Below the pieces are notes generated by a model. That model did not search any database, had not been told where the DNA came from, and saw only the letters and a list, made by a program, of their open reading frames with translations. Shown here piece by piece: positions 3,414 through 53,296 of a DNA stretch of 64,000 nt. The DNA comes from Tubiluchus corallicola (taxonomy: Eukaryota; Animalia; Priapulida). How positions within the stretch are numbered: position 1 is the stretch's first letter; each line of letters begins with the position of its first letter. The stretch covers positions 186,001 to 250,000 of the forward strand of contig JAQGDQ010000080.1 of the NCBI GenBank assembly GCA_030141605.1, in the 5' to 3' direction. Both the position numbers and the translations under genes were made by a program.

Positions 3414-6400
3414 GTATGAGGATTTTTATTAGCATTAATATTTGTGTTTGGTTAAATGCTGTTACTGCCCATTAATTTTTTTGGCAAGTTGAACTGGACA
3501 TCAGAGACAGTATGCTTGCTGTGCACCTAAGATTATTTTAGTGCATTTTTAAAAAGAACCTTTAGAAAATAGGACATAACATGAACTGATTTTAAAATCA
3601 AAGGTTAATTGTTATCTGTCATATAAGTTCAACAATGATTGTTTTAGTCCTTCATTTTTTTCATGTTTCTTGGCAAAGATTCTCAGTCTTGTAATATAAT
3701 CTGTGAGAACTTAACACTTGACATGGATGGCATTTGCAATATTCAACACATTTTTGTGATGACCTTGATAAAGTTTATTGATCATATGCTTAGCTTAAAG
3801 TTGCTTTGCTTAAATTAATGAAATTCATATTTAACATTGCTTTTCTTTTTAATTTAAAGAGTTGTTTCTTTACATAAACAAGTTAATAAGGTAAGCTAAG
3901 ATTGACTAACCTTGTTCAAAGATGTTTAAGTTCTGCTTAAGCCATGTACAACTTTTATTTGTCCATTTGTATATAGTGAGCTGAATATGCACCAGTCGAG
4001 AGTGTTTGACACCAACTGTTTGTATTTGTACCTGTACTAAATCTGATAAAGAAAGTTTATGACCTTTTCTGAGCTGCACACGCACAAATTCTTATCTGTC
4101 TGTATTGCAGTTTAAACAACTTCAAGATGCCATTGTTCTCGTAGGATAGATCTAGCACACTCAAATATTATACAGTTGTTATATAACTGTCAAAGTATGA
4201 AATACACAAAAACAGTACAAATGGTGAGATCAGAGTTATCTTGTGTTAGATTTTTGACTAGATTAAAATACGCTGGTGAATAACATGAAAGGCTTGTTCA
4301 CCATTATAGTTGTCAATATGTTACTGAAGTATCCAAAACATTTGCAATTTACGAGAAAATTATTATTTTCTAATTTAAATGAGACCAGGCACAAGAGATT
4401 TTGATTGTCATTTGCATAGATTAACTTTCAAGGGAGAGATCAATGAATTACGTTGAGAAACTGATATTGTATTAGGTAACAACATTCCTACTTATTTAAA
4501 AGCTCCAAGTTAGCAGGAATGAATATTCTTAGTAATTTAAGTAATTTGTGTTAGCTGCCTTAAAGACCCATGATCAGCTTGCATCATAACTCGGAAGAAC
4601 AATTATCATTAAGCTTATTCATAAAGTAATGTAACTCATTTCTACTGAGCTATAGTTTTTTAGCTGCATGAATAAAATTCAGTGACTTTGCCCTTTAGTA
4701 ATAGAATTTAATATACACACAGGAGTGTAACAGAATTGCACACAATGTGTTATTGAGCAATTACATTGAAATACGTTTAATTAAGTTAAATATAACTTAT
4801 CATAACATCAACTTTCTGTTAAAAAATGCATACTGTTAGCACACATATAAGTGGTACTTATAAATAATCTACTCAAATAACTCCACCCTAATTTTACACA
4901 AGCTTGGCAAATATACTTGGTGTTCCACAACATCATGCGATGTAGCAATAAAAAAAGGGTATGTTAGGTAGTTTATTGCATATATAATGTTATATAAGCA
5001 TCTTATAAAAAACAAAATGGTGCTATTGATATAGTGCATTTTAATATAAATTTCTCCTGTTTATTAAAACTACTAATGATCATTACAGACATTACAATTA
5101 AGTTTATGTAAAAGATTTATATAATTGCACAAAATGATGTGCACACTTACCAATTCATTAAAGATGCTAAAAATGAAGGAACTAAATTGTATTTTGTTTC
5201 TTATTACCTGAAATGGTTACTGGTATACAAGCGATGATGTATTTTTAAAATCTGAATAAAATTGAAAATATAATAACATTGCTTTTTCTTTTGCAAGGTA
5301 CCATGCTTACAGAAAAATTGTCATTGTATTTCAACAATTAGGCAACACACATGTACTTAACATATTTAATTAAACTTCGTTGTTCGACATGAAAGATTCA
5401 TTTGACAATAAATAAATTTCCTAGCAGGCATAATGATTATATTTTTCATGTACTAAAAATATCCATAATACATCACAGACTTGACAAGCTTGATCATTTC
5501 TTAATTTAAATCACAGATATTATACTAAAAAATTGTAACATAGATTTCGTTTTCTCGTATAAATAATATGTGCACTATAAACATTGCGCAAATTATCATT
5601 AAGAGTTCCTGTATTGATGCAAGGAAGACTAGAAAATATGATTGCATATTAAGCAGGGATTACGTCAATACAAACCTTGCTACAGATAAAAATGCAAATC
5701 CTAATATCCACTTTTTATCTAGCAGTAATTGTGGTGAAGAATTTGACTGGTCTAGTGATTTCTCACTTTTACTTGCTTCTTTCTTTCCATTAAACATACG
5801 GTTTTGTATTTCTAGCAATTTTAATCTCTTCTTTGTTTGCACTTCTTGCTGCGTGCAGCCAATCGTGTGTAATTTATCCTCAGGCCAAAATGGGGCTTGG
5901 TTGAACTCATCACAGTCCACTTTGTCATCACCTACATTATGAAGTAACTTGTTAACATAATGCTTCCATGCTTCCGGGAGTTTGATAATTGATTCTTTTG
6001 CTAATTGGATAGCTGAATTAATACTGTGCTGAGTGAGACTCAATGTTTTACATTAGTAGGCTTTGCATAAGTATTTGGATTGGAATGTATGTTGCTAGTT
6101 TATTGGGCTGTTAGTTTGCAGTTGAATGAAAAGGAATGGTCATAATACAGATAGTACCTGTGTCATATGATTTAACTGGGTATCTTGCGTAAAAAATTTA
6201 GTGGCTGGCAATGATCCATAAGAGATTTATTTCAGTGTTTCTAATAACAGAAAGTTTTTTCTAGTAAAGAATTTGTTTACAAAGTGTTGGAAATATAATA
6301 TAAATAAATACTTACCATTTGTATCAGCTTCCTGAAAAGCTTGTTGTAGAAGTTTAACCAACTTCTTGTCTAGATCATCTCGTACTTTACCTACGGCAGC

Positions 6401-9400
6401 CATCAACTCTGCTTCGTTTACCATGCCATCCTCATTTTCATCATAGGAGCTGTGAATTAGCAAGTCTGTCCTGTTGTTTAATCTTGCTGCTATCACATAG
6501 ATGTATTGTGGTGTTTGTGATTTTGAATGTTTGCAGTCAGACACAGCTTGCTGTCTGGTTGGCAATCCTGCATTAGTAAAGTTTACATGAATATATTGTT
6601 TTCAAAGCTTTTGTTTGTTTTTCATTGCTGTAAATAATTTGTCCAACATCATTTAAAGTCAGTTACAATCCAACACCTTTGGATTAGATTATTTTATCTG
6701 ACACATAAAAATTAAATCCTATGATTAAATTAAAAACTGGTTAGGTCGTTCGGATGACTTTTTTAAACTATTATTGTACTATTATTAGTCATAATTCCTC
6801 TAATTTATCACTTACCATGTTTTTTGTTCAGAGCTAGTTCAATGATGCTGTAAGGCTTTATATTATAGGATTTTAGTTCACACCCATCAGCTAGTTCTGT
6901 TTTCTTATAAGAAAGAACTTGTTGTCTGGGTGGGTATGACTGCTGGCGCCAAAGCTGTCGCTTTATATCATCTGCAGTGTCAGTCAGGGTTACAACTGCT
7001 GTTAGCAAGGTTCCTTCTGGTGTTTTTATGTGAATTTGCATTTTATCACCTGTAAAATTAATTCATGTTGAAAATCATTTAAATCATAAAAGGCGACAAA
7101 ATTAAATTCTTTTGTAACAGCACAAACTATCAATTAGGTATATGTGCAATACGGAATGTTAATATTTTGAAATAAATTATTGTTTACATCATTTTTAACA
7201 CTAATTAATTAATAAAATAATTATTTTAAATTGTTGGCACATGTCATACTTCCTACCTAGTCTAGATGAAAATTACAAAAGAAGAATGATCAACTTTCCT
7301 TGTGTGTTTCAAATTTGCAAATATTTATTCTCTGCTTTTGTGTTTGCGATTTCATTGTATTTTTTACGTGAAAATAGAAATTACTGCAAACTTAGAGCGA
7401 CTGATCATAAATTTATTGAAATTGATCATAATATTCCAGCAGATTTAAACAATTTTATGGTTATGTTCATGGAGCCAGTTTGGTATTTATGTGCGAAAGA
7501 AATTTTCCTGTTTAAAGTAACGTGAATTTAATTTTTTGGCGTAGTCAAGGTTTCATGCTAATAAGCGCATTACGTGTGCAAGACATCATATACATTGCTT
7601 TTTTAGTGCTTGTTGTACATAACAATATTTCTTTTGCTTATTGTTATCTTTTCAGTTACTTCAATAATTTAATTTTATATAGAAAGTAAAGTAATCAAAA
7701 AGTTTAATGATAAGTATGCATTAAAGAAGCTTGTTTAGAACTCTTACCTTGCACAACATGTTCTGTATATCCCCATCCACATGTAAGCACTTGAGGTATT
7801 AGAAAAAATAGAATCACTACACTTATAAACATGTTTTTCATATTTGTCATCCCAATATCAGCATTCACCATCATATCAATTGCAGTATTTCACGTATAGG
7901 TTTTTCAATCTTGGGAGGTCTTCGTCTGTCTGATGCAAAGTCAAACTCTATTATGGCATTATGGCATGGTGTCGCCATCCCTGCCTGATATTACTTTTTT
8001 AAGTTCCGTGATTCATGTCATGCATTCTAAGAATGTGGGTATGTCTCGCACAACTTGGCATAAACCAGTCATGCTAAAAACTCTGTCTTGTACGTAAGTT
8101 GTTTAGAAGCATAAAGTTAATTGACGATGGTTATAGGACTGACGGTTTTACACACAGTATCACTCTATATATAGAGTTAAAATTTGCGTGTGGAAGTGAT
8201 TCACTTCACTTCCCGTCAGTGAGATTACATTTGTCGGAAAAGCATTCAAGAGCGTACATGTTTAGTGGCTAAAAAGGGTAATGCCACAATACTGTGTGGG
8301 TGTAAATAGGAAACTGTCAAACTTTCAACAAAAATAAAAATTCCCATGGCCAGCTAGGCAAACAAACAAATGGAAAACAAACAAATAAATAAACGAGGAA
8401 ATTGCCATATTGTGCCTTTACATAAGAAAAACGATCAGAATTGCACCCACCATGAAATTTAGAGTATCATATTCTCAGTCTTTGTCCTTTTTTGATGGCC
8501 AGTTTTGAGTCAATTTTATTTTGACATGTTACTCTTAAGAGTAAATGTTTTCTAATGTTTCACTGTGTGTGGCACGTAAAAATAAAAAGCTGGGCCAATG
8601 AATTCTGAAAGATGACGTTGTTTCCTGGCTGTTTTTGGCAGAGATTGTTTTAGAAAATGTAATACGTGTGTTTGCTAGCTAATTTATATTCCTTGGAATA
8701 GCAATACACCAGAAATTAAACGAACATTTTGTTTGTGTGTTACTGGCTTTATATTAGGAACTAATAAAAATAGTCTGACTGTCAAGATTATAAGTAAAAT
8801 CATTTACCATTGATTTTTGTCCTTTTTTGTTTGTACATTTAGCATAATTTTTTACTACTCATTAAAATATATTGTGTCTCAAAAGTCACTATACACTTTG
8901 ATTTCTAATTTCGTTTTTGAACTGTCCTCCAATCTCAGCTATCTCTGACATGAATCAAAAATGGTCTTTCGTGATACTTTTTATTTTATTTTTTACTGGA
9001 ACCTCATTGCCATGGTAACAACAGTAACATGAGAAATAGGTGCAGAATCAGCAAGCTGCGAGGTTGTTCGATCACCAATTGAAGTTCAGAGGAAATTCAG
9101 TGCACTGATTAGACTATACTATTATCTCACGATTAGCAATGCAGTTTTTCAACAAAGTGCAGCCCTTCTTCATTACTAATGGTATGGGAGAGACCTTCCC
9201 AATGCAAGACGGTCCTTGCCACTGGATTGGTCTCTGAAGCTCTTGAAGTCCCTGAAGAAAGTAGCAAAAAATAGCAAAGCCTATTAGTGTAGTATTTCTT
9301 TTTAGCTTTTAGTACCCTACCCAGTCTCTCTGAAATTTGAAACTATGTTCAAAACTGTCTGACTAGATCTCATCAATGTTTGCTCTTTTTCTATGTTTGC

Positions 9401-12400
9401 TCTTTTCATAATGTATCACCATGAAAAAAACAGCTAAATTATAGAAACTTTCTTGGTGATAACTTTGTTTTATGCTAAACTAGCTCTTCAGAAGCAGATT
9501 ACAGAAGTGTCAGTGGTGCATCACGCTTATTTTAAATAAGTCCTTATCACAGTATCTGCTGTGTTTTTGTTTTTGTGGGTTTATGGGTTTATAGGTAGCC
9601 ACCTGTTGTTCATTAAAAGTGATGCACAAATTCCCCATTCACAAGTTTCTAAACAATTTTTTCTTCAATGACTTTGCTTTTCATACTTATTTAAATCATC
9701 CAAACTATGCACTTCCATAACGTCATAGTTATTTGTTAGCACAAATATGTTTCCATCGTTAACCCAAGCCTTTTGAACTAATGGCTTCTTTTGTTTTACT
9801 TTCTTCAATAATCTCTTTCTCCTGTGCGTGAGGTGACGTTTTATTTTGATGTTGGAATCGTTTGCTACACGTTTCCGAGCGTGATGCAATGCATTGCGAT
9901 CGGACAGGCAGCTAAAGCGAACTAATATTGCACGACGTCTGTTTCTGTGTCTGCTTCTGCTTCCTGTTCTTTTGGCATATTCAATACTGTCTTTGGTGAG
10001 ATTCACACCTAATTCTGCAGCTACTGAGATCACGCCTAATTCTGCTTCACCAAGTTTTTTCATTTCTTTGTTAGCACTAATATTCTTGAACATGGTAGTT
10101 GCAAACGGTTCAGTTATCCCTTCAATAACCAGATCGTAGCGAAATATATTCTGCTGTAGTTGGTCTACTTCCAACATTAGATTGTTTTTCTGTTTTTTTA
10201 GATCCTCTATCAGGATATGTAGATCATCTTTGAGGTCAGTGTACATTTGCTCTTGCTTGTTTCCCACACAGGCTACAGCATTTATAAAGCTGTTGTCCCA
10301 TTGATCATTTATTGCATGTTCTTTTAAACAAAACTGTACATCACCATGGAGGCCTGGTGGCAAACCCTTCATTATTCCTTCATCATCACCTCGATAGTGA
10401 TGAGATGTGGTACTGGATGCTTCCTGAACTGCTTTTGAGGTAGATTTTGTTGTTGTTGTAGAGGATGCACTACTTTTCTGTCTTGCTGGTTCTGTTCAGA
10501 AAATTAAAAAATTTAAAAACAAAAAGGTGGAAACATGAAATCTATTGTTTTGGACCATAAAAGAGAACATCTCATTTCAATATAATGTACTCTACTGTAT
10601 AATGAATAACATATAGCATATATTAATTTCGGTGGTATATATATATATAAGGTCTGGACCCACAGATTTGCCAATGGGGATTTATTTTTAAAATCGGTCC
10701 CACCGGGAGGAACGGGGGAGAGCGAAAAAACTCCAAAAATGGCCATTTTTTGCCAGTTTTTTGCAAAACTTATACCTCTTATTTCTAGAGAACAAGAATG
10801 TGCCAAGGGCGGTGCTGGTAATGGCTGAATAGCCCATTCAATGGTGGGTGTAATAGTCATATTTAGATTTCACAGGAGGGTCACCAATGCCCGCTACGGG
10901 CATTTTCCCGAACCTAACTCCCAATTTTTTCGAAATTTTGATCAAACGGCATGCGGAACAAACATTCTAGCGGCCCCTGATGGACCCTCGAATGGAGATA
11001 TATAGCTCCTTAGAAAGAGGAGGAACAGGGCTACACGATGGTGTGGGCTGTATTGTAGGATGTCTCCACCCTGAGGAGCTGTGACGATTGATTGGAGGTT
11101 CCATTTCGGGCAATTTTCGCTTGGAAAACTGCTGATTCAAAGCCACTGTTCTGACGTCATCTATTATACTCTGCCTATAAACTTATAACTTTAATTCAGT
11201 AAAAGCTGCTGCTGGCTTTGTGTTAGAAATGAGGACTAGGTAGGACGTTCATGTATTTTTGATTATAAGTGTATTTATATGCAAAATTGTTTACGGGGCT
11301 TTTGCTTGTTAATAATTAATTCTGTTGATGAAATTGGAAAACAATGCAAGTAGCATAAATGCAGGCTTTCAGAATAGTTAGGCTGTTGAGTGACTGGATG
11401 GGTGAACAGGTTTGATACTTGTTTTGGCAAGTATCACTGACCATAATGATTTAGTCTGTTTACGTCACACAGGGAGGTTGGTTTTACATTATACAATTCT
11501 GCATCTACCCATGGCTAATAGCTAAGATACCTTTGTCCAGTAGCTTAATTTAGCCTTGATAATGAGTCAGGTTTAGATATCGGCTATCCAGTTTGACTAG
11601 GCCCTGCATTTGAAAGCTGGGTTACAGCTTACAGTAAAATTTCCAGGTTTGATTTTTCAATTTCATACAGCTGAAATTACATTTTAATGTAGTTTTATTT
11701 ATAACATCATCAGTTTATCTCAGCTTGAAGTAACCACACAGACAAAGGTAAAGCAATATTAACTAGACTTTTATTTATGTTATGGAGATGGACCAGTCGG
11801 TTATTTATATACTGATTCTGACAATGAAATTCTTGTATTGTATTTTTCGCTTCATGAAGTGTTTACTTGTCAGTAAGAAACTTTCTTTGTTATAAGCAGA
11901 TGTTTACTTATGTAGTTTGCTTTTTTGCAACTGGAGTAGCATAGTGTCAATTTCATTTTACAAACCTCTGCATTTTGGGTTTTCCCTTAAAATTGCTTCT
12001 CGCATCTTCGGTTTCCAAAATATCGCCCAGTAGAATTCCTGGCAGCTTAAAGCACTATCTCCTATAGAACAAGATCAAAATTAATACATAGTTTTGCATA
12101 AAATTAATCTTGTCCTGTATCTGTTGTAAAAGTATGTAAAATTAGGAAAGTATTTCAGCTAGCACAGGGAGCAAGTGTAATCGGACACATGTTGGAGTCA
12201 TTGTCACAATATTAATCAGAAGAATTTTTGTAAGCTAGATCAAGAATGTCAAGGATAGATGAGATATAATAGATTGTAACAAATCAAAATAATTTGTGTT
12301 AAGCGATTGAATTAAGAAATAATTTGGCAATAAATACAGATATTTGTAGAACTCTTTTGATTTAATAATGTTAGAATTATACTAACGGTTATGGTCAGCA

Positions 12401-15400
12401 GTTGTGAAGGCTTTGTTTACATTTTTTCTAGTTTCTTCATCGGTTATTTCCAGTTTTTCTAGGATTTCACTGACGTGAACAATGCCATCACCATTCAGAT
12501 CATAGGAACTGAGCACAAGAAGGTCCTTCCTGTTATTAAACTGACGTAGTATTGCATTCATAAATTCCCATTTAGCTTCCGTTATTGTCAAATCTGGAAA
12601 AAGCATGTAAATCACTGCAATTACATTTTAATATAAGGAAATTAATTAAGGTTAAATGTGAAATTCACAGTAAAGTGAATTTTTCTATTAAACATAATCA
12701 TATAGGTTTAGATCACTATTGCACGCTGCCCATCAAGTGTCTGATCTAACAGGCACTTGACAGTAATGTCTAATGCAGTGAAAATTTTACAAAACACACC
12801 TTTTAGTTCAGGAGTCCACTTGATTTAATAATTTTTTAGGTCAAAATATTTGATATTGTTGTTGTTTTGCCACTAGTAAAATTGTGGTGCTGCCCAAAAA
12901 AAAACAAATGTAGCTTTTTCCTCAAAATCGGCCTTTATAGAGGATGAAGTACTAAGTTATTCGTGTATATCAAGTAATGTCAAACCTGATATTTCTACCA
13001 AATGATTTCATATTATTGAAATACACATATCAGGATTTTCTGCTTTGGCATTGATTGTAGTGATTGCCAAAAAGTGGTCATTTCTTCAAGGTTTAGAGAG
13101 CCAAGGAAATGGCTTTGTGCAATTAACATTCCTATATGAATAGGTCACTTTGTCTGTCAGTCACTGTAAAAGCAGTTTGGAAGGACAAATGTTGAGAAGT
13201 TTGTTGTACAAAGGCCTGAATGCAGTCGACGTCAAAGTACTCTAGAATTTCTAAATGAACTGCACAGTTATTATGTGATAAATTTTCATGAAATTGACTT
13301 GTAAGCCCAAGTGGGCTGGAAACAGCTTTAATAACATTTTACAGTATTAATTAACACATGAATTATTACATTGTTATTATCATATGTTTATGTCAATAAA
13401 GATATTCAATCAATCAATCAATCTAAGAAACTTTTTGTTTTTAAAGAAGAGTTGTTGGATTTCTGCTTGGGAAAATGAAAAAACATGCCACTTTCATTAT
13501 ATATTCAGATTTTTGCCTTTGCAGCTGACAACCTTTTAATGTAAAGAGATTAACGTTTAAGATGTTGATAAACCGCATTTATTTTTTTTATCAAAGTAAA
13601 GCTGATCATGAACTTAAAACTCATCAGGCATTGAGTATTTGTTCATTTTGTTTGTCATTGCACTCAACAATTACGTTGGATTTTTGGAGTTTCTCCTGAA
13701 TGAGCTCTTAAGATCATAATGATTTCAATATAATTCTGAATTGAACTTAAATGTTATGTTCATATTTTGTCTTTTTGATCATAACATTTTTTTACTGACT
13801 CTGGCTGTCCTTGTGTTTAAAGCAAGGACAAAAAACTCATAATATGCATTACAATAATTATAACATATGTCATCCTGTTTTTGTTGCATTACAACTACAT
13901 AGTAATTAATAAAACATTCTTACCTAAATTTAGTGGCCTAGTAGGCAAGCCAAAATCAGGCAAAATAACACTAGGCTTGCCGCCTGGACCAGGGGGACCT
14001 ATTATAGGAGGTAGTGGTCCTGGTACACTGGGAACAACACCCCATCCGCATCCCAGTACCTCGTGGCTTACCGAACTACACAGTAGTATTACCAAGCACG
14101 TTATTTTCATTGTGACGTATCATTAATCCAAATTACCCAACAGGAGAAAAATCCCATGTTGCCTGCAAGCGTTTACAGGATGCCTACTCGTTTCCTTTCA
14201 GCACTGCTTGTATCCTGGGCTCGTCACAGCTATGACAACTTGTAACATTAGACGTAGTTAGATGGGTAATTTTCTGCAGCAAGTGTTGAGACTTTCTGAG
14301 AAAATCCCGCCTTGCTACATTGGGTGCTATAATTAGTTAGCTTTACCATTTAGTTCATTAAGTGTAATTGTTAATGCAAATGAGAATGTGTAGATATTAC
14401 TGGCATTCGAGTGCTTTATATGATATAATATCTGATGATTTTGTATTTTAAATATAACCAGGTCTATGGGATTTTAGTCTGCAGCGCACTCTGTATGCGC
14501 CCTGCTAGGAACTTTTGTTTCTCATAGGAGGTCGCATCTATGATGCTTCACTAATAAAAGTTTGAAATTATTTAGGGTGGTGGTTTTTACAAGCAACTGT
14601 TGCCACTTCCCACGTTAACATGCAACTTTGTTTGAAGTTTTTATGAATGGCACAGCTATGATGCAAGCAACTGCAAATTAACGTTTGGAAGCTTTAGCTG
14701 CACATGGGTTACATCTTTAAGACTTCGCTAACTCTTGGCAGGGTTACAGTATTATGAATTTAGGCGTTTGGAAGTCTAGCTGTCAAATTTTTCAGGTTCA
14801 AGATTGTGGGCCAGGATTATGACTTTCTAGAAACTCTGTAGTTTGTACTTATTCTGTACTTATTGAATGTGATTTGTTTTTTAATTTGTAAGAAAGTTAA
14901 CTAGTCACGTTTGTTGCACGAGAAATTTAGACATTTTCTAGTGTTAGCCCATTTAATGGCAATTATGTTGAATTTTCTTCTTGCTTTCACTCGCGCACTT
15001 TATGTAAGCATTTCTATATTTAACCATTACATATAGTACAGTAGAATATTTGCTACGCTGAGGATATCACGTGACTCTTTTGCCACGAGTGACGCCAAAG
15101 TTTGACACTTGCCAAAAATTTTCGCGACTGCGTATTCTGCCCAGGTCGCAAATCATTCGTGAAAAGTTTTAAATAAGTTCGCGCGTTCTCGGCACTTTTT
15201 TGCCAGTTTTGAGCTTTTTTCTCGAGAGAATACCACACGAAATTCGACATGTTTGCGACATATTTGCAGCTGTTTGGGTGACTTCTACGATACTTATACG
15301 ACAAGCCGAATGTTGCACGACATTTGCCCGAGTACGTTACGATCGTTTCACGGCCATTTCACAGAATTTTGGCGAAAAGAAGTGCGAGACAACCGAGGTT

Positions 15401-18400
15401 GTCCAAAATGTTCAAAAATAGTCGCAAAGTGGTGGCAGCGTCTCAAAATGTTTTCCAAGATTTCCTGGAGTTCAGAAAACACACGACAGTTATTTATTTT
15501 TATTTTAATGCAAAAGCCAAGTCTCGCGGGAAGCTGAGCTTATTTTAATGTATGGGGAAAATTTAGAAAATTTCAGCATTAAAATTGTGATAAGCATCTC
15601 GTGTAATTAGTAAAATCAATTTAAAGTCGTGATTACTTTACTCTTGGGCGCGCTAATTTTAGCGAAAAATGACGTCATCCGGTTTCCGTGCAAAATAAAA
15701 TCTTATCCCGCCAAGTAGACTAAAGCTATGTAACCACTTTAAATTTGATCGTAATTGCTCGAATGGCTAATTTCTAGATAAACACAGTTAAACACAAAAT
15801 TAGAATAACGGAACTCCTAAGCAAACTGTAGAAATTGTGCAAGTACCTTGACACAGCTTGTCTTCACGGCATTCAGGCTGCCTAGCATACACCAACTTAT
15901 GTCGTTTCTTTTAAATATGCCGGCATCAACGTTCGTTTGGCAGGAGATAAGAAATGTATTAAAAGCTAATGGTAAATAGTTTTATGATTAGCCTGTACAA
16001 GCACTAAATGTGAATTTTTCACTACATACATAAATTAAGCAGTCTAGCAGTCTCAACGATCATTGTTTTTAAAGCGTTTACGTTCATTTATAAATGTCTG
16101 CACACAATCACATATTTTACATTTATTTACAAAACCTAAATTTTCGTCTCCATGAAGTAACAAACGTATGATATTCCTTTATGCCAAATTTCTGATGTCG
16201 TCACTATCTTATAAAGCATTAAGCTTAACATAATGTGGGCAATTGAGAACAAATGTTCATATGTACATGTATCAGGAGATGCACTCCATGTACAGAAGGG
16301 CGATACTAAAGAACCATCATTACTTTTTACAATTTTTAAATGATAGGTCATAATTTTTTGTCTAAATCCTGTGCGTATGCGCGTATGGTGAATTGAACTT
16401 GGCTGTTTGCTGTAAAAAATAGTTTGGATGTTTATTAAAATCTAAGTGCTTTTTAGTTCAAGTTTAAATATTGATAAAGATCTTATTTTTACGTTTAGTT
16501 ATGGGAAGTTTCATTATTTCACGGCTTCTTTGTACTTCGGACATTCTTTACTCCATGTCAAATGCTCACCTCAGCTGTTAATGCGCTGTTCAGTTTCGGA
16601 TTCACAGGGCTTTTGCGAACACTTCTCTTCAAACAGGACTTGATCGACGCCGCTTAGCTACACGAATGTATTTGTAACAGTTGTAAAGATAATAGGCCAC
16701 TCCACTCAAGCTAAGGATCGCTTAACTTTGGCAGTAAGCGCATACCTTGAGTTCATGACCATTCATTTATTTTTCCGGAATTCATATAGAAGCTTTATGC
16801 AGGTATGCACATGCATGTTTCATCATTTTGCACAGATTGGAAGGGAGGATTGGGAGGTTGGCACATTGTCATTGTCATTGCAAGATTTTACTATTTAGAA
16901 ATATAGGTAATAATAATAATAATATAATAATAATAATAATAACAATAACAATAATAGTAATTGTAATAGTAATAGTAATAGTAATAGTAATAGTAATAGT
17001 AATAGTAATAGTAATAGTAATAGTAATAGTAATAATATTTGAAACCACCAATTGAAAAAAACAAGTTCTATGGTATTTTATTTTGATCGTCACATAATAT
17101 GTATTAAAAGTCTGCTAGTTAAGCATCTTCTGGATTTAAATATTGATTTTACCCGACTCATAAGACATATTGCTATAGTTGTGATCGATTTTCAAATGAT
17201 TAGCCTGGAGGTGAATTAGCCCGCGAATCCTCGGGCTAATTACGTCTACTATGTAATGTAGGCCTAAAACGTTTTGAGAGTTAATACGTGGGCACATATG
17301 GTGGTGATCATATTTATCGTCAGTTAATTGTTACGTTCACGTCATACATAATTACGTATTGCTTTACCCTCAATCCGCCCCATACTTCAAACGCCCCAGG
17401 GAGAAATTATTTTGTAGCTGACACGCCAAAAAAGGTGATGCATGTATACAAGGGTTAACACATTTGGTTACAATGTAAACGGCAAAACTTTCAAATGTTA
17501 ACCATTCGCGACTATATCACTTATTAGAAGCATTTGCATGTGTAATAGTAAGTGTACTGTAATGAAAGTTACTAGCAATAAACCGTTTGTCTTAAGTTTC
17601 TGTCATTATAACTTCACCATAATTAGCATTCATTCAAAGGCTTTTGCTCTCTACACATTTCGATTGTACAGCAGATATAACAACATTTATTTTCAGTGAT
17701 TTGGTTTGTTTGTTTTTTATCAAATATTACACTTGACAAGATGTTCAAAGTTGCAGTTCATAAGTTCTTCATCAAATAGGGTTCCTTCTGGGCACTGTCT
17801 AAGGTAAAACTTTCCCCAGTTGCAATGGAGCCATCTTCTGCAATTTGTTGGATCTGGAAAATTGCCAAATGGTTCCGGACAGTAAAACTGTGCATCACCT
17901 TCATAAGGTCCTACAGGAACAGTTTGACCGACATTAGGTGGCTTTGATCCTACAAAGTAAAGGGTTGCTATTAGTTAATTATTTTGATGGAGCAAATTTT
18001 ATATTGTTTTGTCATCAGTAAGACAAAAATGTTTGCTCATGGTTTATAATTTTTGTATAGCCCTATGCAAAAATTGAAACAATTTTACAATTTGAATATA
18101 TTTGGGGTCTTTGAAGGTAAGCAGCTTTTGACTATACAGGCTTAAAGCCATAGGAGTTCCTTTGTGAAATGTTTAACGTACCTACAGACAATGTGCAAGT
18201 TACTTTTTCCCTGTCACTTCCAGGCCAGAATGGAGCGTTTCGGAATTCTTGACATGAAATCGCAAAGTCTCCTGAAATGATTACATATTTTTATTAGCAC
18301 GTATCCAGATAGGAACAATGAACTATTCCGTTTGTATCGAAGGGAAAGTTACTGATTAATATTCGAGTGCTGTCTTCACCGCATCATATACAAGTCCTGA

Positions 18401-19938
18401 TACCTTATGTATAAGTGCCGAAGAGCGATTATCTTAGGCACAAGGGGTGTATTTATTATTTCAAACCAGTTTTGCTCTGGTATTACTTTGGTATTACTGC
18501 TTACTGATTAAGACTCACCTATATCTGATATCTTGCGTATTACAGTGTGAAAACTCTTTAATAACATTAGTTTTCATTTGCTTTTTGTTTTAATTTGACT
18601 GATCTGCCGGTTATCTTACTTCACTTCCGTTCAAATTTGTTTTAACGCTTCATAGTTTTAACAATTTGAACAACTGAGTAGTTTTTGGCTTTATTTACGC
18701 AGAACGCATTCAAGCGTGGGTCAGGCCAAAAAGCACTACTTTTTTACATTTACCCTAAGTCTTACCATTTACGTCTGCATCGGTGAATGCTAAGATGGCC
18801 ATCTGTTTAAGGTAATCATCATAGACTATTTTGAGAGCATTCAGGATTTCCGTTAGATCTATTTTTCCATCTTGATTCTGGTCATAAGTGTTGAAGTTTA
18901 ATAAGCGCATCTGATCCCTGTGGCCAGTCGCTAACTTATAGAAGTAGAAATATCTGTCGTCAATGTTCTCCATTTCTTTACTTTGCAGTTGATCAGTTTC
19001 ATAAGCTGTAATAGACTTTTAATGAAAATAATGTTCATGTTATTTTTACAATCACGAAGCTAGCTATAAGCATGTACGTGTACTTTATGGCACAGCTAAG
19101 ATTATTATCAAGATGCTTCTGTCGCTGTAACATTCTTAATGTTATCGGCTCAATTTATGTGTAAAATCGAATAATAAAAATATTACATTGAATTGATGGC
19201 GTCTGGATAACTATTGTTATGCAATGTACGGTGATGTAAGAGATTTACTGAAAATTTGTGAAATTCCAAAAAACTTAAAATTACAAACAATTCAAGTTAA
19301 TTGAAAGAAACAATACTGACCCGGTCTTGAAGCTCCTGGTGCCGAAGACCATCCACATCCACAGCTAAGTTTTAATATTGTCTCGAATAAAATTACGCAC
19401 AAACTCACTTGTTTGTTCATTGTCAACTGTCGAAAGATAAAAAACACAAAGCCAGATGTATGCTAACACATTCACGTAGTTCACATTAGTCGTCAGTAAT
19501 GATGCTATAGCACTTCCCAATTCTCGATATTATAATAATTATATGAATGTGCTTTTGTTTAATTAAGCCAAGCTATGAGCATTTTTTGTAACAGTTTTTA
19601 ACATAACTCGTTCTGTACTTGCAAGTAAAATGTTGCAGATCTTTGTAGAACCTGTGTAGACTCGATCTGTGTAAAAGCTGTGAGTCTCGACGTCATATTC
19701 TTTGCTGCATTTATCCTTCACTGTCTAGGCGGCTTAACTTGAGGAGGTGTTTATCTTGTCAAATTTACTTTACGTCTTATGTTTAATTTACAGCGTGTAA
19801 AACGCATCTTCAACAAAGGCTTTTTCTTCCCTATTCAATAGACTATTTTTAGAGTCTTGGTTGAGTCAAACCAAGTCTGGTGAAATCAGGTTAGAGGATG
19901 ATTTTATAGAGGAGAGGAAAAGTGATTTGCAGTGTGAC

Positions 19939-19985
<47 letters not shown>

Positions 19986-22900
19986 TCACTTGTATATATA
20001 TTGCTCTTCTATATATATATATATATATATATATAGAAGAGCAAGGCTTCGTTCCACGTACTCATATTAATCGTTATCTGAGACAGGATCTGCTTCTTTT
20101 CACGATTAGTAATTAATAATTGATGAAAACTGCCAAACCTGCTAGAAATTTAGGCAACGAATTCTCTCTCTGTGTGTGCAACTTGCTGGCCGACTATCTT
20201 TTTATTTTACTTTATTAATATAGTGAAGAAGACGTTACTGCCTGTTTGCGGTCTTAGTTAAACTTTTAGCATATGCATGTCCCAGCCTCTACTGAGGGCC
20301 CTCTAGTATCTGTGGCTTTAGCCGTCTAGCATCTATAGTTTTACCGAGTTACAATTTACTGATTTTTTTTTGTGTTTCTGGAGCGTGATCCCATTTAAAA
20401 GAAGGTGAGAAAAAAGTTGGCGACATACTGACTCGCAAACTTACGAAGTTTCAAAATATTCGAGCGAATACAACAGCAATTGAATAACTTCAGTGTAAAT
20501 CGGCACGCATTGGGCGCTCATAATGGGATAGGTAGCCAAGCAGACTTACAGTGTGGTGAGCTGTAGGTTTCAGTTGATTCACTTGTGAACTAATCAATCA
20601 TAAATGTGCTAGTGTGTATAATTAACTCTTTTACTGTAATCTAATACGAAGCACTTTTCTTTACGCAATTCTTTTGATAGTAAATTTTCTAAAGATGTTA
20701 GTTGACAAATAATAATATTAAAAAAACAGAAAAGTGTGGGAACTTGGGACTAGGGAGTATTTTTCGCAAGTTTATAAATTTTCTAAATGCAAAAAAGACG
20801 CGTTAATGTTTGGTTTGAAGTTTCGGTTTGAAGGGACACTTGTATTATGTCGAACCGAGCACACAGTCACTGTTCATCTGTTTCAGTGTTTTCCCCCAGA
20901 TAAAAGTTTAATTAAGTGAATGGTAAGATTTACTACTAGTAATAAATTTTTGATTTTTATATAATCGTTCTAACCAAGTGTTTTGTTTTATTTTTGTCTT
21001 AAGTAAATACTGTCATTTATAGTGGTCTAGGCGGGTAAGTCAAATAGTGCATGACTATAAACATGTTACAGGCAAAGTATGAAACCGGGCATTCTATTGA
21101 ATACTTAGGCATTTTATGGAGTGCTTAACCAAATCAGGCAAAGCGTCTAAATAATTTCTTTTACACATTTTCCTAGGCTTTTCTACACTTTTCACATTAT
21201 ACATAATACAAGAGTTTGTTTAGGCACAGTGTGTAATTCTTTGATTTTGAATATACTTTCATTAGGTATTTCATGGAATACTGAATGAATTTTAGTTCAT
21301 GTACAAATAAAACAAATGGTCAATTGTTTTGATATAAGTTTTCTAAGCATAGCCAATTATATATTAGGGAATGTGTGAAATAAGTCTTCTTTCTATGTGC
21401 TTGGAAATTTGTATGGTGTAACGATCTGACGATTAGGGGGTAGGTTGTTTGATCGATGGTAGTCGCTGGATAACAAATGAACTGGCCTGTGCGAAAACTC
21501 TTAGAAGGACTTAGTAATAAAGCTGCAATAAGTGCTTCGTGTAACTATGTAACTAGTAAAATTACTTTAAAATCGCGATCATTTTGTGCTTGGATGCATT
21601 CTTGTTTCAATGACGTTATTCGTCTTGAAGAAAAGTTGCGCACTATCAATCTTCATCAAATGTATAATTAGTTTTTACAAAAAAATTAGATAGCTTAAGA
21701 TATTTTATAAAATGTCTAAATTACACATTGCCTATAACATATATACTGTTCACTTGATAGATTACATAGACGATCTACGCGAAAGATTACGTAGATGGTA
21801 ACAAATAACTTTGTCTAGCAAAATGTGATGTTTGTAATCTTATTATTAGAACATTCGAGGTACTGTAGAACCTCTTTTGGCCAGAATGTTGTGTTTAAAA
21901 ATTCTGAACAAGTAATCCCGAATGAACCTGAAAAAAGTAAAAAGACAAATTTAAGTAGTAACCGTAAATCCAAGCTTAAGCGGCGTTTATCAGACATCCG
22001 GAATGCGTTGCGCTATTGTGTATCCACTTGAGAATAAACAGCCTAACTGCAGAATAACGCAACAACGCAGGCCTGATCATTTAACCGGTGCATTGAAAAC
22101 AATATACAGTTGTTTTTATCTGTAACGTAATAATGCATACGCAGTAACGCGTAACGCATTCCGGATGTCTGGTAAATGACGCTTTAAGAAAAATTTACAC
22201 GTTTTTAATTCATTGCGGAAAGTTACTAGTAGCTAGTTGAAATTTATGGCTTTTATAATGGTTATCCGTGCATCTTGTTTGAACTTGAGTTTTATTAGAT
22301 TTTGAAAGCACTGTTTCAACAGCTTTACAAGTCTGCGAGAGTAGTATGCTACTAGTGATTTAATGCATAAGAACACTGCATTACATAACGAACAAAACAA
22401 TTTCATTTTTAATAGGCTTGGCATACATCATTGCAAATACTAATAAACAAAGATTATGGAATATGGATGGAATCGCGGATATGATTTATTTTTGTTCTCT
22501 AATATTTAAAGCAAAATATCTATCTTACCATTTGTGTCGACTTGTCGAAAGACTGAATAAGCAAGGCCTTCAATATTTGTATTTCCGTTTGTTTTTAAAG
22601 CTTCTCTAACTTCGTGAAAATGAATGCAATTGTCATTATCCGAGTCGAAGTACGAAAAGTCGAAATACGGCGAGATTAGAATCCCACGCAAAATTTCAAA
22701 AATTTCACAAGCTACAAGAGGTTTTATGTCATCTGACCATACCACGCTGTTAATGAATTCCCCACAGCTAATCCGTCCATCATCTATATTAAACAGATTG
22801 CCGAACAGTTAGTTATTGATTAAATTATAGCGAAGAATAACGTAACATGACTTTCTATGTTAGTACATATTCAATTATGTTTTTGTGATGACTGTACTTT

Positions 22901-25900
22901 TTTCCCTTCCTTTGCTTACCAGCTGCTGCTGCGTTTGTTTTTTTCATGATTTTCTCATTTCTTTCTCAGGCATTGTACGCTTTGTAGTACTTTTTTTATT
23001 ATATACGCTTTCATTTAGTTTTGTGTAGTCAGTTGTGTAGTTATACTTATGTAGCAGCATGAATAAACTGTAGAGATGATTTTCTAAAAGTTTTGTATAA
23101 CATGGATTACAGTAGTTATATAGCAGACAAGCAGACGAACTGGCATCTATGCTGACATGCAGCAATGCAGGCTGATAGATGACAGCATATCACCTGTGAG
23201 CAGTAAAAGTTAAGTCGGCTAGCAGAAATCTTACAAAACTAGTACTAGACGGCAGAAGCTTGCAACAACTGCACAAATAGCAACTCTCCCAAGTTTATAT
23301 GTTGTTAATTGTATTATTTAGATGTATACTGGAATTTTTAATGAAAGGTAAAGGTTCTGAGTAGGTGCAGTAATCTCTAAATATAAGGTTTTTTCGTCAG
23401 TCATATTTCTGCATGCCAGTTCAGATTGCACGTTCTGTGTACATAATTTAATTCGCTAGCTATTAATTTTTTACCCGTACTGTACATTCTACACCGAGTA
23501 TGGTTAAGACACTATTGTGTATACCAACTACTTGTCATGCAGAATCATGGTGGTGTTTCATAAAAATCAATTTGTTTCAAGATTTGTTCAAGCTTTACTA
23601 AAAAATTCACAGGGTCAATGTTTATTCTAATGTCATGCAAAATATGCCCTAATGGCCTATATGCAGTAGAACCAGCATGCAAATAATAAATTATGTTAAA
23701 CTTTTTATTTAATATGTAAAAATCTTATTTATTGAAAGTGCATAAAATTTTTACAACTGTTACATTTTTTTTAATTTACCAAATTATTTTGAAATGTTAC
23801 TCATAAATGTAGTCCCATTTAAGCCCGCAGTTTTACTCGGTAGGCCATGTAGTAAGAATATACAGTACTTCAATTTTCAGAGTAAAAGATAAGCCTTCCA
23901 AAGCGGCAAATACTCTCTATTAAAAAAATTGAAACAAATAATTATACTGACATATTTGCATCAGCGTGAGGAGTATGTCCTTGACGGAAGAATTATTGTT
24001 CTTTGATAACAATCGGTAAATATTAAGTAATTTACTTTCTGGTTGTACTAGCTTATGAGCACATCGGCTAATTAAAAATAACAAATGGATAGTTAGCAGT
24101 CAACTAAATTAAAATCTTCTGACAGTGTGAGAGCTAGATAGCTAGTCTCACGAGCTTATCTACTAACTGCTAGCTAAAAATCAAGTACATATAGCTAATT
24201 AACTAAAACTGTATACTCATATGAACTATTAGAGGGTTAATCCGTAGTTGGTTCTATAAATTTTGTTATTTATTATTACCATATTTAGACTTGACATTGG
24301 ATCGAAAATTGTATAATGTCCTGTTTGTTACAGGTCAAAATTTCCTTAATTGTTTAGTTTTTGTTACCGTCCGTGAAGATAGCCAATTTTTGTTGGAAAC
24401 AAGTTGGACAGTAAAATTTTGAATATCTTTACAATTTGCTTCTGTGATTACTTGAAAGTGATACACAAAAATAGTTTTAGAGCTGCACTAGTAGAGGCTA
24501 TTGCAAGTTAATTTAAACCCTCGTTGTAGTCATCATATTTCTGAAGTTTACATATCCATTGTTCTGTAAAATTTTTGATTTCTTCTAATTATTAGTAACT
24601 AAGTAACTACGAATTCTTCTAATTATTTACAGAAATTATAAGTTATCAACATGTTTCGAGGTGAGATTCATTGTTACAAGGTACAAGTAAAAATTTTAAA
24701 ATGTTGAGAAATACGCAGGGCATGCATACTTGCCTTCACGAACGTAACCCAACTCGTCGCTAGAACTTTGAACTGCTTAGTGCGTGGGTAGTGTAGTGCG
24801 CTTATTATACCTCGGGTGCCAGTACGACATCCATATACTTATTATGATTACTTGCAGAGAATAAATCTCTGGCATTTATTAGATACGCAATGTTGTGAAA
24901 TGGCAGTTACAAATTATGCAGTGATGTACATTTGTTCAACTTACCGTCAATGTCAGTATCTTGCCGTATGGCTACAGCCAGCGTCAAGTTTAAATGTAAA
25001 TTTAACACAGACTGCAGCTCATTGACGCTGATGAAACCATCACGCGGTGAAACGTCATATGTGCTAAACCGTAGCAACTCAGTTCTGTTGTTTTCCCTAT
25101 AAAAGTTGTATAATTCCGTGTAGTCAATATCTGGATTTGTGCTGGATGTCCGACGAATCCCAGGCGATATTGCACCTCCGCAAGCTTCTGCTCGTTTTTG
25201 AAAAAATATTATAGACAAAATAATAATTATTGTTAAGAATCTGTTTGTCGCGTTTGAAGAAGTTAATGAAAAAGCCATCTTTCAACTGTGTTGTGTGAAA
25301 CACTCTCGTAAATTACTTTACTTGAGCTTGACGTAGACCTTCCGTATATTTCCTCGTTAACTGGGCTGTTTACTTCCGTCTTTCCTAGCAATTCCAGTCA
25401 CTTTGGTGCAACTTTTAAAGGGAAGTATCATAATATTGACTTCCTTTCCATACTCAAACACGTGTTGTTGTGTTCACTTGCTGTTTTCGTATTGAGTCTG
25501 TTAGAGTAGTATATACGTACTTGGATATTCTTACGATTTTAGTGGTGACAGTAACTGTACAACCCGTGTATATGGGTTGAATATTCTGAGGTCCTGAATA
25601 TTGTGTCCGGAAAGCAAACTGTCTGTCAGTCCGATTTTGAAACTAGAATTAGCCAGTTGAGTGATAAACTTGAAGCTCTAGACAATAAAATGAGCTGCAG
25701 CTCAAAACCATTGTGGAGTGATATAGTATCGATGCCTAGAGCCGAGAATAGTGCCAAGCTGTCAACAGAATACAAGTCTGACGACAAAATGAAATTAACC
25801 AAAACCATCTATGATCCGTCTCGTACTGTAATAATCAGCAATGTAAACGATAAAGAAATTGTTAAATCAAACTTCTCCATCGAAAAACAATTATCCCACC

Positions 25901-28900
25901 ACTTCCCTCTAACGCAGTTTGACAACATCAGAAAGACAGCTAAAGGTATGATACAAGTGCAACTTAAGCACAAAGAAGAAGCAAAGTTAATGATAGATAC
26001 CTGGCTGCTTTCGTACCTGGGCACAGAGACTTCAGCTAGATGGCCTCTACAAAATACCATTGGCTTACTACGAGACTGCGACCTAAGCTTGACCGATGAT
26101 CAACTATTAGATGAGATTAGTAAACATTACTCTGACGTGAAAGTGGACAGGTTCAAGAAAAAAGATGGAACGGTGCTTACCCTAGCTAAAGTATATTTTA
26201 ATTCAGCTGATGATTTAGAAACTGCTATCTTTGATGGCATTCCCATTGGTAATATGTACTGTCAAGTCGAGAAGTTCATAGTCGCTAACAAACCAGTACA
26301 GTGCTTCAACTGCTACAAATATAACCATGTAGCAAAATGGTGCAAATCTAAAACTGTCTGTGGAAAATGTTCATCTAGTCATAAAACCAGCAATTGTAGC
26401 AATGAACGTGTAAAATATTCAAACTGTGGTGGCGCGCACGAGGCGTGGTACAGGGAGTGCTGGAAATATAAAGAAGCGTTATCCATGAGAGAGTCTAATA
26501 AAACTCCTTCTAGCAACATTCAGTAATATTCACAACGTGAACAGTTACGGAAACACTAATAACAATCCTACAAACAAAAACTTTTTTTCTTTCTATCACT
26601 CCAACGTACGAAGCCTCCTAGCGAACAACGAATCCTTTAAGTTGGACGAGTTGCAGTTAGTCGCTAACACCAACAATTATGATGTCATCGTTCTGACAGA
26701 AACATGGCTAGATCAATCCATAGCAAATGATGAAATTCGTCTTTCCGGTTTCCAAGATCCAGTCAGAAAAGATCGGGACAGAAATGGTGGTGGAGTAGCA
26801 TTTTATGCGGCCAATCACATACATTTTAAAACACGGACTGAGTTGTTACCACAGAATCTGTTTGAATTTATGTGGATAGAGATCAGTTTAAAGGATAATA
26901 CACTCTATATGTGCATTTGTTATAGGTCCCCATCCCAAGATGCAGCAGGTGAAGACCGATTTATTGCAGCACTAAATGAATATTACAATAACCTACTAAC
27001 CTCTCAACCTAAGCACCCCTATAGCATTGTATTTGTTGGCGACTTTAACGCCAAATGTAAAGCCTGGGACCAGGCAGAGCTAAACGAAGATCCAATGGGC
27101 CCTAAATTAAATAATTTTGTTGTACAAAATCAATTGTTCCAGTTAATTACTGAACCCACTCGAGTAACTAGTACGTCAAAGTCTGTACTGGATTTGATTA
27201 TCACACACTCACCTAGATTATTTACTAACTACAGTGTGTTTCCACAAATCTTTACATGCGATCATAACCCTATTTTTGGGAAAATTTGTGTCAAAATTTC
27301 AGTACGTCATGCTTTCAAAAGAAAGGTATATAATTATAATTTAGCAGATTGACCAGCATTAAATCAACAAATCTCTGCTGCAAATTGGGAGGCTGTGCTT
27401 TCAAATGAATCTGTTGATTGTTGTTTTTCTATTATTTGTTGACAATCTAGTGAAAATGATTGATTCTTGTGTGCCTAATCAAATTGTAACAATACGCCCA
27501 CGCGATAAGCCTTGGATGAATAGTCACGTTCGAAAGCTTAGAGTACAAAAAGAAAAGGCGCACAGAAATTATAAATTAAACAGGACGAACGCTTCGTGGC
27601 AGTCCTATACTACTATTAGAAATAAGTACAACAATGCTGTTAAAAAAGCCAAACGTGACTATTCAGACAAACTGAACGAGAAGCTATTGAATCCTGAAAC
27701 ATGCCCTAAAGTCTGGTGGGAAATTACTAAAAGTTTTTACAAAAATACGTGTGACTATTTTATTCCTCCCATTATAGATGAAGCTGGTGTTGTCACAAGT
27801 GATGCGATTTCCAAGTGCAATGCATTTAACAATTACTTTGCCCAGCAGTGCCGTTTGAACATTTCAAATGCTTCATTACCCAGATTCGTATCGAAGACTG
27901 ATACATATATGTCTCACATTACTGTACACGAAGATTTAGTGAAAACACTATTAAATAACGTCAGTATGAGCAAATCTGTAGGTCCTCAAATCTCATTTAA
28001 GTTTTTCGTTTGGTAAGAAACATTTTTCATTTGGTAAACCTCCAATGTCAGTGCATCATACGCGCATGAGAATCGGATTTTCTCAGCTAAACTATGACCT
28101 TTTCTCTAAAGGCTGTAAAGATAATAACGGTCATCCAATATTGCCGAATTGTAACTGTGGATATCGATTTGAGTCTGCTGAACACTTTTTGTTGCACTGC
28201 CCATTGCATCAACTAGCTAGGGTAGTTATGTTTGATAAATTAAATGCAATACTTCTGCCCGAAAGCCTTAATATAGCTGCCTTAGGAAATAATGATCTGT
28301 TGAAGTTGTTATTATTCGGAAAAGACGAATTTAACTATGTTACTAACTGAAAAATATTCCAATGTATACATGACTTTATATTACGTACTAAACGCTTCCA
28401 GTAGTTTCTATCTGATATAAAATGCATAATTCTTAAATAATCGTACATTAATATTTACTAACCGTCATTTTCTACTACTGTCTAATGTATCACTGTAGTA
28501 AAACTTTAGTATACTAAAGTATACTAAAAACTAAGTATAGTCTATTCTTACTGTAAATGTTCTTGTAAATAGTGTATAAAGTCTGTTGTGGTGAGGATCC
28601 TAAATCATGTTGTACAAACTGTCTGATCCAGTCCTAAATAAATTATGTTTAAACTAACCCGTGTGCAATCGAAGAAAAATTCGTAGACGCTGGACGTATT
28701 GACACGACAATTTTCATGTTTCGCTTTAATCAGTTTGTAATTTAATTTATTACTGAAACATATAAAGAAGAGATTTTAATTCATTTCGAAATATGTAACT
28801 CATGATTGTGGAATCACAGCATGCAACACTGTCAACACACACGTCCATACTTCTACGAGAATGGTTTTGTCGATCGAAATCCATACGTTTTTGCGTTTCG

Positions 28901-37601: not shown

Positions 37602-37636
<35 letters not shown>

Positions 37637-52810: not shown

Positions 52811-53296
52811 AGCTTTTCATTGCTTGTTTTTTTCTCTACGTCGTGCTCAGCTAATTTGTACAAAAGTTTGTCATGTTGTGTTAAGTCCTAAATGTGCCAT
52901 TATCAACATTTATTTAAAACTGGTAACAGTTGTAAAATTTACTGCCTAAGTGCAAATGATAAGTAAAGCATATTGAAAACATTGCCAGTGCAAGGAGAAA
53001 AACGTATTTTTCTATTTCGTTAGGTTTATTGCATGAAAACGTGTGAGTTGCCATATATACCCTTGATCTTGGTTCAAATTAGAACTTTCAAGAGTTATAT
53101 TAGTTACTACTGAATGATCAGATCATTTTAGTTTACTGAGAGCAAAGGTCATCCAACCTGGATTTAACATAATCTTAATTCATGATCGCTCTTGTTGACG
53201 TTGCTGACTTGCACATCTCTAGATTTCATTTGTATTGTTCCTGTATTAAATCTACTTTAGGAAAAGGTTCATTCCTATAACACTTCTGTTTTTAAA

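Follow-up and report, generated by a model that had tools for sequence, protein, structure and literature searches.

A window of 64,000 nucleotides (the whole stretch of DNA analyzed here) carries on its minus strand an intact orphan LINE ORF1p, with good signs of being the predicted last exon of gene B, a modeled EF-hand gene; the observations of an earlier sequence-only reading are partly confirmed, and the fusion that it proposed is partly supported. Judging from its predicted structure, the frame at 9665-10491 is a type II LINE ORF1p, comprising a coiled coil and an RRM as well as a C-terminal domain (CTD). Based on gene models and splice signals, the chances that this frame is an alternative last exon of gene B seem to us evenly balanced. 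We consider it rather less likely, though conceivable, that the complete ORF1p serves outside the cell as the part by which a secreted calcium-binding matrix protein trimerizes and binds polyanions, within a gene family that has taken up intracellular folds as phase-1 exons more than once.

Identity and fold of the ORF1p frame

The window is A+T-rich (about 29-38% G+C), with spliceosomal introns; together with its kinesin-like, avidin-family, and GPCR genes and a chitin-binding domain, this suggests an invertebrate animal. The ORF1p-like frame is open from stop to stop over 9665-10495 (276 codons). Counted from the AG at 10491, it comprises 274 codons plus a junction codon and ends with a stop at 9667-9665, in agreement with the sequence-only reading, which had described it as unbroken for about 275 codons. 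When the frame alone was scanned against Pfam, the sole match was PF25298 (E=0.0035, below the cut-off). The frame itself did not match Transposase_22 (PF02994), which was found in one of 42 scanned relatives, also below the cut-off, and a single-sequence PDB search gave nothing below E=0.06. A phmmer search yielded 191 proteins at E<=0.001 and none at 1e-10, the nearest relatives among the matches listed being about 30% identical at best. For the alignment, 116 of the 150 matches listed (191 in total) were combined with the query, those left out being mainly short ones, and the resulting profile of 117 sequences matched human L1 ORF1p (PDB 2yko) with E=4.2e-11.

In the AlphaFold2 model of the frame (mean pLDDT 82.4), a disordered head is followed by a long helix, an RRM, and a CTD. 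The N-terminal tail (residues 1-33, 10391-10489), modeled with low confidence, is basic and Ser/Thr-rich. The helix (residues 48-118, 10136-10348), where pLDDT is mostly above 85 from residue 71, shows a heptad pattern and is predicted to form a coiled coil, which directly precedes the RRM. The single RRM (residues 119-222, 9824-10135), recognized by profile, model, and Foldseek, carries 21 Lys/Arg versus 11 Asp/Glu and is followed by the CTD (residues 223-274, 9668-9823), where the PF25298 hit represents a weak match to baculovirus FP domain 2. All 10 Foldseek matches against the PDB with E<=0.001 were L1 ORF1p, at 10-13% identity, so that the profile and the structure both led to L1 ORF1p, as the sequence-only reading had anticipated. 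Considering these profile and fold results, the missing PF02994 match is a sensitivity limit. The presence of all three domains argues for the frame being a last exon of gene B.

The term 'L1-type' used in the sequence-only reading holds for the fold but not for the clade, as type II ORF1 is found in L1, CR1, L2, and R1 elements according to the available part of PMC4120745. Assignment to the L1 clade was rejected, since the fold is shared among these clades and no reverse transcriptase (RT) remains. In the profile alignment, a Glu and an Arg of the frame appear to match human E169 and R202, a pair described in the accessible part of PMC3141268, and the net charge of the core is +13 versus a median of +10 in the relatives.

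The look-alikes of the ORF1p part in the Atlas scored 0.91-0.92 and belonged to unnamed or partly FP-domain clusters, and the top matches in a viral-model search were mostly baculovirus FP25K, with E down to 1e-6. No contig encoding a close ORF1p relative was found in a viral contig scan, and metagenome contig scans with the frame itself and with the relative P0074 found no locus; none of the collections covered yielded a close relative. A word-based protein search with the ORF1p frame was blank at 151-483 aa, a range including the 438-aa fusion model. This blank is uninformative because the EF-hand exon of gene B likewise found no database relative at 120-2000 aa, the source species being seemingly absent from the database. 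Among 164 relatives of the ORF1p frame, none carried an EF-hand loop motif, and three had a mildly hydrophobic start, none convincing as a fusion.

Gene B, its paralogues, and the candidate splice

Four related genes, D, C, B, and A, lie in tandem on the minus strand at 5660-25278 and were modeled by hand. In all four, the start is a signal-peptide-like hydrophobic stretch, behind which comes a Cys-Gly(-Trp-Gly) motif. A profile of five EF-hand exons matched solved EF-hand proteins with E down to 6.6e-11; the paralogue exons match Pfam EF-hand families, and gene B has two loop motifs. For the EF-hand exon of gene D, the Atlas score was just 0.82, a weak lead. While gene D as modeled consists of a signal-like start and EF-hand exons, gene C (17720-19420) continues from its EF-hand exons to a CBM14 chitin-binding last exon (E=2e-13); its product is a candidate matrix protein. 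Gene A (5660-7850) comprises a signal-peptide-like exon, a ubiquitin-like exon, EF-hand exons, and a last exon with a hydrophobic tail. The ubiquitin-like exon (6816-7049, phase 1-1, Pfam ubiquitin E=8.6e-11) is apparently, from its sequence, a second intracellular fold shuffled into the EF-hand family. Besides the candidate ORF1p intron, all 10 modeled introns of the cluster are phase 1, which, together with the swapped CBM14 and ubiquitin-like modules, argues for the fusion; the four-gene cluster offers a compact example in which phase-1 exon shuffling could be put to the test.

Exon 1 of gene B was modeled at 13924-14110, with a signal-peptide-like start (best 11-residue hydropathy 2.48), a Cys-Gly-Trp-Gly motif, a Pro-rich stretch, and a phase-1 donor; the product is likely secreted, based on this start. 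Exon 2 (12387-12593, phase 1-1) encodes the first EF-hand loop and the start of the second, and its EF-hand_7 match (E=0.095) is weak alone. Exon 3 runs from 12061 to a candidate phase-1 donor after 11966, with the GT at 11965-11964. The donor was indeed found where the sequence-only reading had placed it, and about where gene C splices to its chitin-binding exon: exon 3 up to the donor measures 96 nt in gene B and 90 nt in gene C, and the two donors are two codons apart. The same reading erred in locating it just after a conserved Cys. The Cys column is common to genes A, C, and D, whereas gene B has an Arg there and its own Cys five residues later.

If exon 3 is read through, it stops after two more codons (11958-11965), giving a short form of 165 aa. 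The short form could end at two AATAAA hexamers that begin at 11775 and 11699 (11694-11775), 180 and 260 nt past this stop, although they are weak signals at a background of 1.6 AATAAA per kb. This stop with its own AATAAA signals argues against the fusion, and so does the distance of 675 nt from the ORF1p stop to the first AATAAA behind it (8990), which lies beyond another candidate exon at 9251.

Joining the donor after 11966 to the acceptor at 10491, both phase 1, gives a predicted stop-free protein of 438 aa, so the in-frame join that had been proposed holds at the sequence level; the ORF1-derived frame exceeds 200 aa and has a canonical splice site in frame with the host gene. To score the signals, splice matrices were built from 29 donors and 29 acceptors of our own modeled junctions (19 in a kinesin gene, 10 in the EF-hand cluster), with two kinesin acceptors and one kinesin donor left out (one for an out-of-frame junction). 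This kinesin-like gene (30163-44537, plus strand) has multiple exons and a long coiled-coil tail, and one junction of its model, near 31862-33537, is out of frame. Its donor at 34269 reads GTTTGT, as had been noted, and lies within a modeled 16-exon, 760-codon stop-free chain. Elsewhere on the plus strand, an avidin-family gene (53261-53662 and following exons) has a hydrophobic start and a Pfam match at E=3e-7, and exons of a rhodopsin-family GPCR were found at 61137-62797 on the minus strand.

The gene B donor scored 7.5 bits, above 16 of 29 donors in a leave-one-out comparison; when the kinesin GTTTGT site is excluded, it scored 6.8 bits (15 of 28). At 10491, the acceptor reached 7.1 bits, above 14 of the 29 training acceptors; it is phase 1, as had been claimed, but of median strength rather than strong. 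It ranks third of 258 AG sites in 11940-7860, and among the 12 best acceptors there it is the only one that opens the whole ORF1p frame in phase 1. An upstream AG at 11174 scores 10.2 bits, but its phase-1 frame closes after two codons. Of about 128,000 strand positions, 107 are as good as this donor and 183 as good as this acceptor. We estimate at about 1% the probability that ten phase-1 positions near the donor of gene C would include one of this quality, and at about 6% the probability that the 40 codons without Met at the head of the frame would include an acceptor of this quality. Both figures are guides only, because the two sites were selected after the fact. This selection weighs against the fusion, as does the training of the matrix on our own 29 modeled junctions. 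With these reservations, a donor and an acceptor of median strength, in frame and in phase 1, argue for the fusion.

The donor of gene B could also be real and serve another exon. Specifically, it could join 9251 or the phase-1 exons of gene A, which would leave the ORF1p frame as intronic debris; we regard this as very improbable. The phase-1 acceptor at 9251 opens a 38-codon frame (9133-9251, minus strand), a possible alternative last exon of gene B, and scores 7.9 bits, slightly above the acceptor at 10491. The join from 11966 is in frame, giving a 202-aa form, and AATAAA hexamers at 8990 and 8985 lie behind this exon. However, such a splice would bypass an equally strong acceptor closer by, a read-through scan gave no Pfam match for the 38-codon frame, and the openness of the 274-codon frame would be left unexplained.

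The head of the ORF1p frame also bears on the proposed junction with gene B. The frame opens 4 nt ahead of the acceptor at 10491, and its first 40 codons lack Met, the first being residue 41; since the start Met is missing at the head, translation would have to begin in an upstream exon or at Met41. A conserved core motif lies at residue 112 counted from the acceptor, versus a median of 105 in the relatives, and at 72 counted from Met41, 19 of the 95 relatives being that short. From its sequence, the whole ORF1p seems to be present except the start Met. This late Met and the position of the core motif relative to the acceptor argue for the fusion. Ser and Thr account for 46% of the first 35 residues from the acceptor. 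Among 95 relatives that start with Met, the median is 20%, the highest value is 43%, and 10 reach at least 30%. The sequence-only reading had called this stretch a mucin-like Ser/Thr linker. It is Ser/Thr-rich, but a linker derived from the host was rejected, since the relatives likewise begin with basic, Ser/Thr-rich tails and the distance to the core motif is normal. Based on this comparison, the head is probably ORF1p's own N-terminal tail. The N-terminus of human ORF1p is disordered and positively charged, according to the available part of PMC5940361.

At 10704, 10776, and 11633, the 1474-nt candidate intron (10492-11965, minus strand) has weaker phase-1 donors preceded by an ATG; these three could supply a separate first exon and thereby argue against the fusion. 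The frame might then belong to a separate domesticated, L1TD1-like ORF1p gene encoding an intracellular RNA binder, with its own first exon inside 10492-11957, either short or non-coding with a start at Met41. We judge this to be improbable. In its favor, the frame is open, divergent, and well-folded, an RNA-binding fold suits the cell interior, and the known co-opted ORF1ps have intracellular hosts in the accessible parts of PMC4161310 and PMC12129022. The three donors, however, score 6.0-6.4 bits, below the 7.5 bits of gene B; two of them lie in or beside a G+C-rich hairpin block that seems to resemble an unrelated repeat; and the gene B donor, two codons from that of gene C, would be left unexplained. 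The G+C-richer block itself (about 10700-11100, 46-48%) includes a hairpin at 10725-10762 beside a TA run and may be a small non-autonomous repeat.

Missing ORF2, divergence, and constraint

As the sequence-only reading had stated, there is no ORF2 behind the ORF1p frame. When 7900-9664 and 10492-11957 were read in all three frames of this strand, with stops as X, Pfam gave no endonuclease or RT match, and tblastn with LINE ORF2 pieces from the same window gave no match in 5000-14200. Gene A starts 1.8 kb past the ORF1p stop, and Rfam showed no match in 7900-14500. A further LINE copy lies on the plus strand at 25555-28350, in head-to-head orientation to gene D and about 280 nt away from where that gene starts. 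Its ORF1, of 323 codons, is open and has Cys/His knuckle-like motifs; an endonuclease frame and the end of ORF2 are also present. A kinship between the ORF1p frame and the ORF1 of this LINE was rejected, as the two are unrelated (probability 2.5%).

The ORF1p frame could be an ordinary transposon remnant, either a young ORF1 copy whose ORF2 was deleted or a copy of a non-autonomous ORF1-only element resembling HAL1 of mammals, with chance splice signals and with gene B ending at 11958, which we consider unlikely though in need of careful weighing. The LINE at 25555-28350 is broken, with an endonuclease match and no RT match, and nevertheless two of its frames remain open, over 323 and 287 codons. 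Open transposon frames therefore prove little alone here, a point that favors a remnant and argues against the fusion. Furthermore, ORF1-only elements exist (PMC5753468, in its available part), gene B is supplied with a stop and AATAAA signals of its own, and an A-rich patch was seen by eye about 75-100 nt past the ORF1p stop. On the other hand, a remnant does not readily account for 40 Met-free codons heading the frame that resemble an ORF1p tail. The longest word shared by the flanks was 12 nt, equaled or exceeded in 49 of 200 controls, so that no target-site duplication was found beyond chance, although old duplications would be erased; a 10-nt match at 10931 and 9663 was rejected as such a duplication, being at chance level. 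No second copy of the frame was found within the 64-kb window, a very small sample. Finally, 16 of 43 conserved columns are lost, which is unexpected for a recently active copy.

The frame thus keeps 27 of 43 family-conserved columns versus a median of 35, 7 of 116 relatives being as low, and its score against the family profile is 142 bits, where the median is 191 and 6 of 116 relatives score as low. In simulations of 600 runs each, a neutral frame of the same length survived 5% divergence in 0.8% of the runs with indels and in 22% without. A divergent yet open, well-folded frame is consistent with an old copy that was maintained, though with a change in the constraint on it, and this state, along with the apparent Glu and Arg counterparts of E169 and R202, argues for the fusion. 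However, the terminal branch of the frame is unremarkable, 28 of 116 relatives being as long or longer, which together with the neutral survival of 22% argues against it. Considering this branch and the identity of about 30% to the nearest relatives among the matches listed, the divergence may also fit a young copy of an unsampled active subfamily.

Composition does not tell host from transposon frames in the window: GC3 and CpG were 0.34 and 0.58 in the ORF1p frame, 0.33 and 0.41 in the kinesin, and 0.35-0.42 and 0.66-0.75 in the LINE frames. No sign of secretory adaptation was seen in the ORF1p frame, as its three N-glycosylation sequons are not in excess (at least three occur in 14 of 116 relatives). 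This, and two furin-type sites that would cut the basic domain of the 438-aa form, argue against the fusion.

Should the ORF1p frame be the last exon of gene B, its history would have begun with the insertion, in sense behind gene B, of a LINE carrying a type II ORF1; the remainder of the element would have been lost, leaving ORF1. An acceptor at the ORF1 start would then have been captured by the exon-3 donor of gene B, replacing the initiator Met. The signal peptide would export the fusion protein, the coiled coil might trimerize and thereby present three EF-hand pairs, and the basic RRM-CTD surface could tether the trimer to a polyanion, for example nucleic acid outside the cell or an acidic glycan. 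Trimer formation is suggested by analogy with L1 ORF1p, where it is driven by the conserved coiled coil (PMC5940361, available part). The paralogues suggest a design in which a secreted calcium-binding unit would be combined with an anchoring last exon, the anchors being a chitin-binding domain in gene C, a hydrophobic tail in gene A, and a basic trimer in gene B.

Comparison with known ORF1p-derived proteins

Compared with the type II ORF1p of LINEs (Transposase_22, PDB 2yko), the frame shows the same order of coiled coil, single RRM, and CTD and likewise has a basic core. In contrast, it lacks an ORF2 and a start Met at its head, has lost several conserved residues, and is 10-13% identical to human L1 ORF1p. 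Baculovirus FP25K (few polyhedra) proteins provided the top viral matches of the ORF1p model but are viral and 13-16% identical. FP25K and ORF1p are of common ancestry; our literature search found no paper on this relationship. HAL1 half-L1 elements resemble the frame in having ORF1 without ORF2 but are multicopy mobile elements, described in mammals (PMC5753468, in the part available). L1TD1 likewise keeps ORF1p domains without ORF2, reached via splice acceptors, whereas it consists nearly entirely of two ORF1p copies, has no host-domain fusion, and is eutherian only, as described in the accessible part of PMC4161310.

L1TD1 is a less close precedent than the vertebrate ORF1p fusion exons of PMC12129022, which come nearest and lower the novelty. 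In its available part, this source describes four vertebrate genes in which the first or the last coding exon derives from ORF1p, giving the fusion isoforms Lyosin (L1 ORF1p-MYL4), NUP42-L1, USP4-L1, and L1-RFX5; its screening tables could hold more. As in these, the exon proposed here is ORF1p-derived, exceeds 200 codons, and would be spliced to a host gene at one end of its coding exons, here as the last. NUP42-L1 and USP4-L1 carry ORF1p as the last exon, as proposed for gene B, and NUP42-L1 keeps the CTD; that such last-exon fusions exist in mammals argues for a fusion here as well. Lyosin joins ORF1p to an EF-hand domain, as the gene B model would, but with ORF1p in front, without the CTD, and in the cytoplasm, whereas the gene B model has a complete ORF1p at the end. 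The vertebrate fusions are L1-derived and backed by annotation and partly by RNA and dN/dS, whereas that of gene B is predicted from sequence. The host also differs, gene B being a likely invertebrate gene with a signal-peptide-like start, while the hosts in PMC12129022 are vertebrate, and the words 'invertebrate', 'secreted', 'signal peptide', and 'extracellular' are absent from its main text. In a literature search with most subscription journals outside its scope, we found neither an invertebrate or secreted ORF1p fusion nor a secreted, shuffled family combining EF-hand and chitin-binding domains.

Co-opted LINE ORF1ps are rare, comprising L1TD1 and the four vertebrate fusion isoforms, none of which is described as secreted in the available parts of PMC4161310 and PMC12129022. 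If the proposed fusion is true, ORF1p co-option is not peculiar to vertebrate L1, and an RNA-packaging fold is reusable outside the cell as a trimer scaffold or a polyanion binder. Taken together, the kind of event is already known from ORF1p exon capture in vertebrates, while its secreted invertebrate form would be new.
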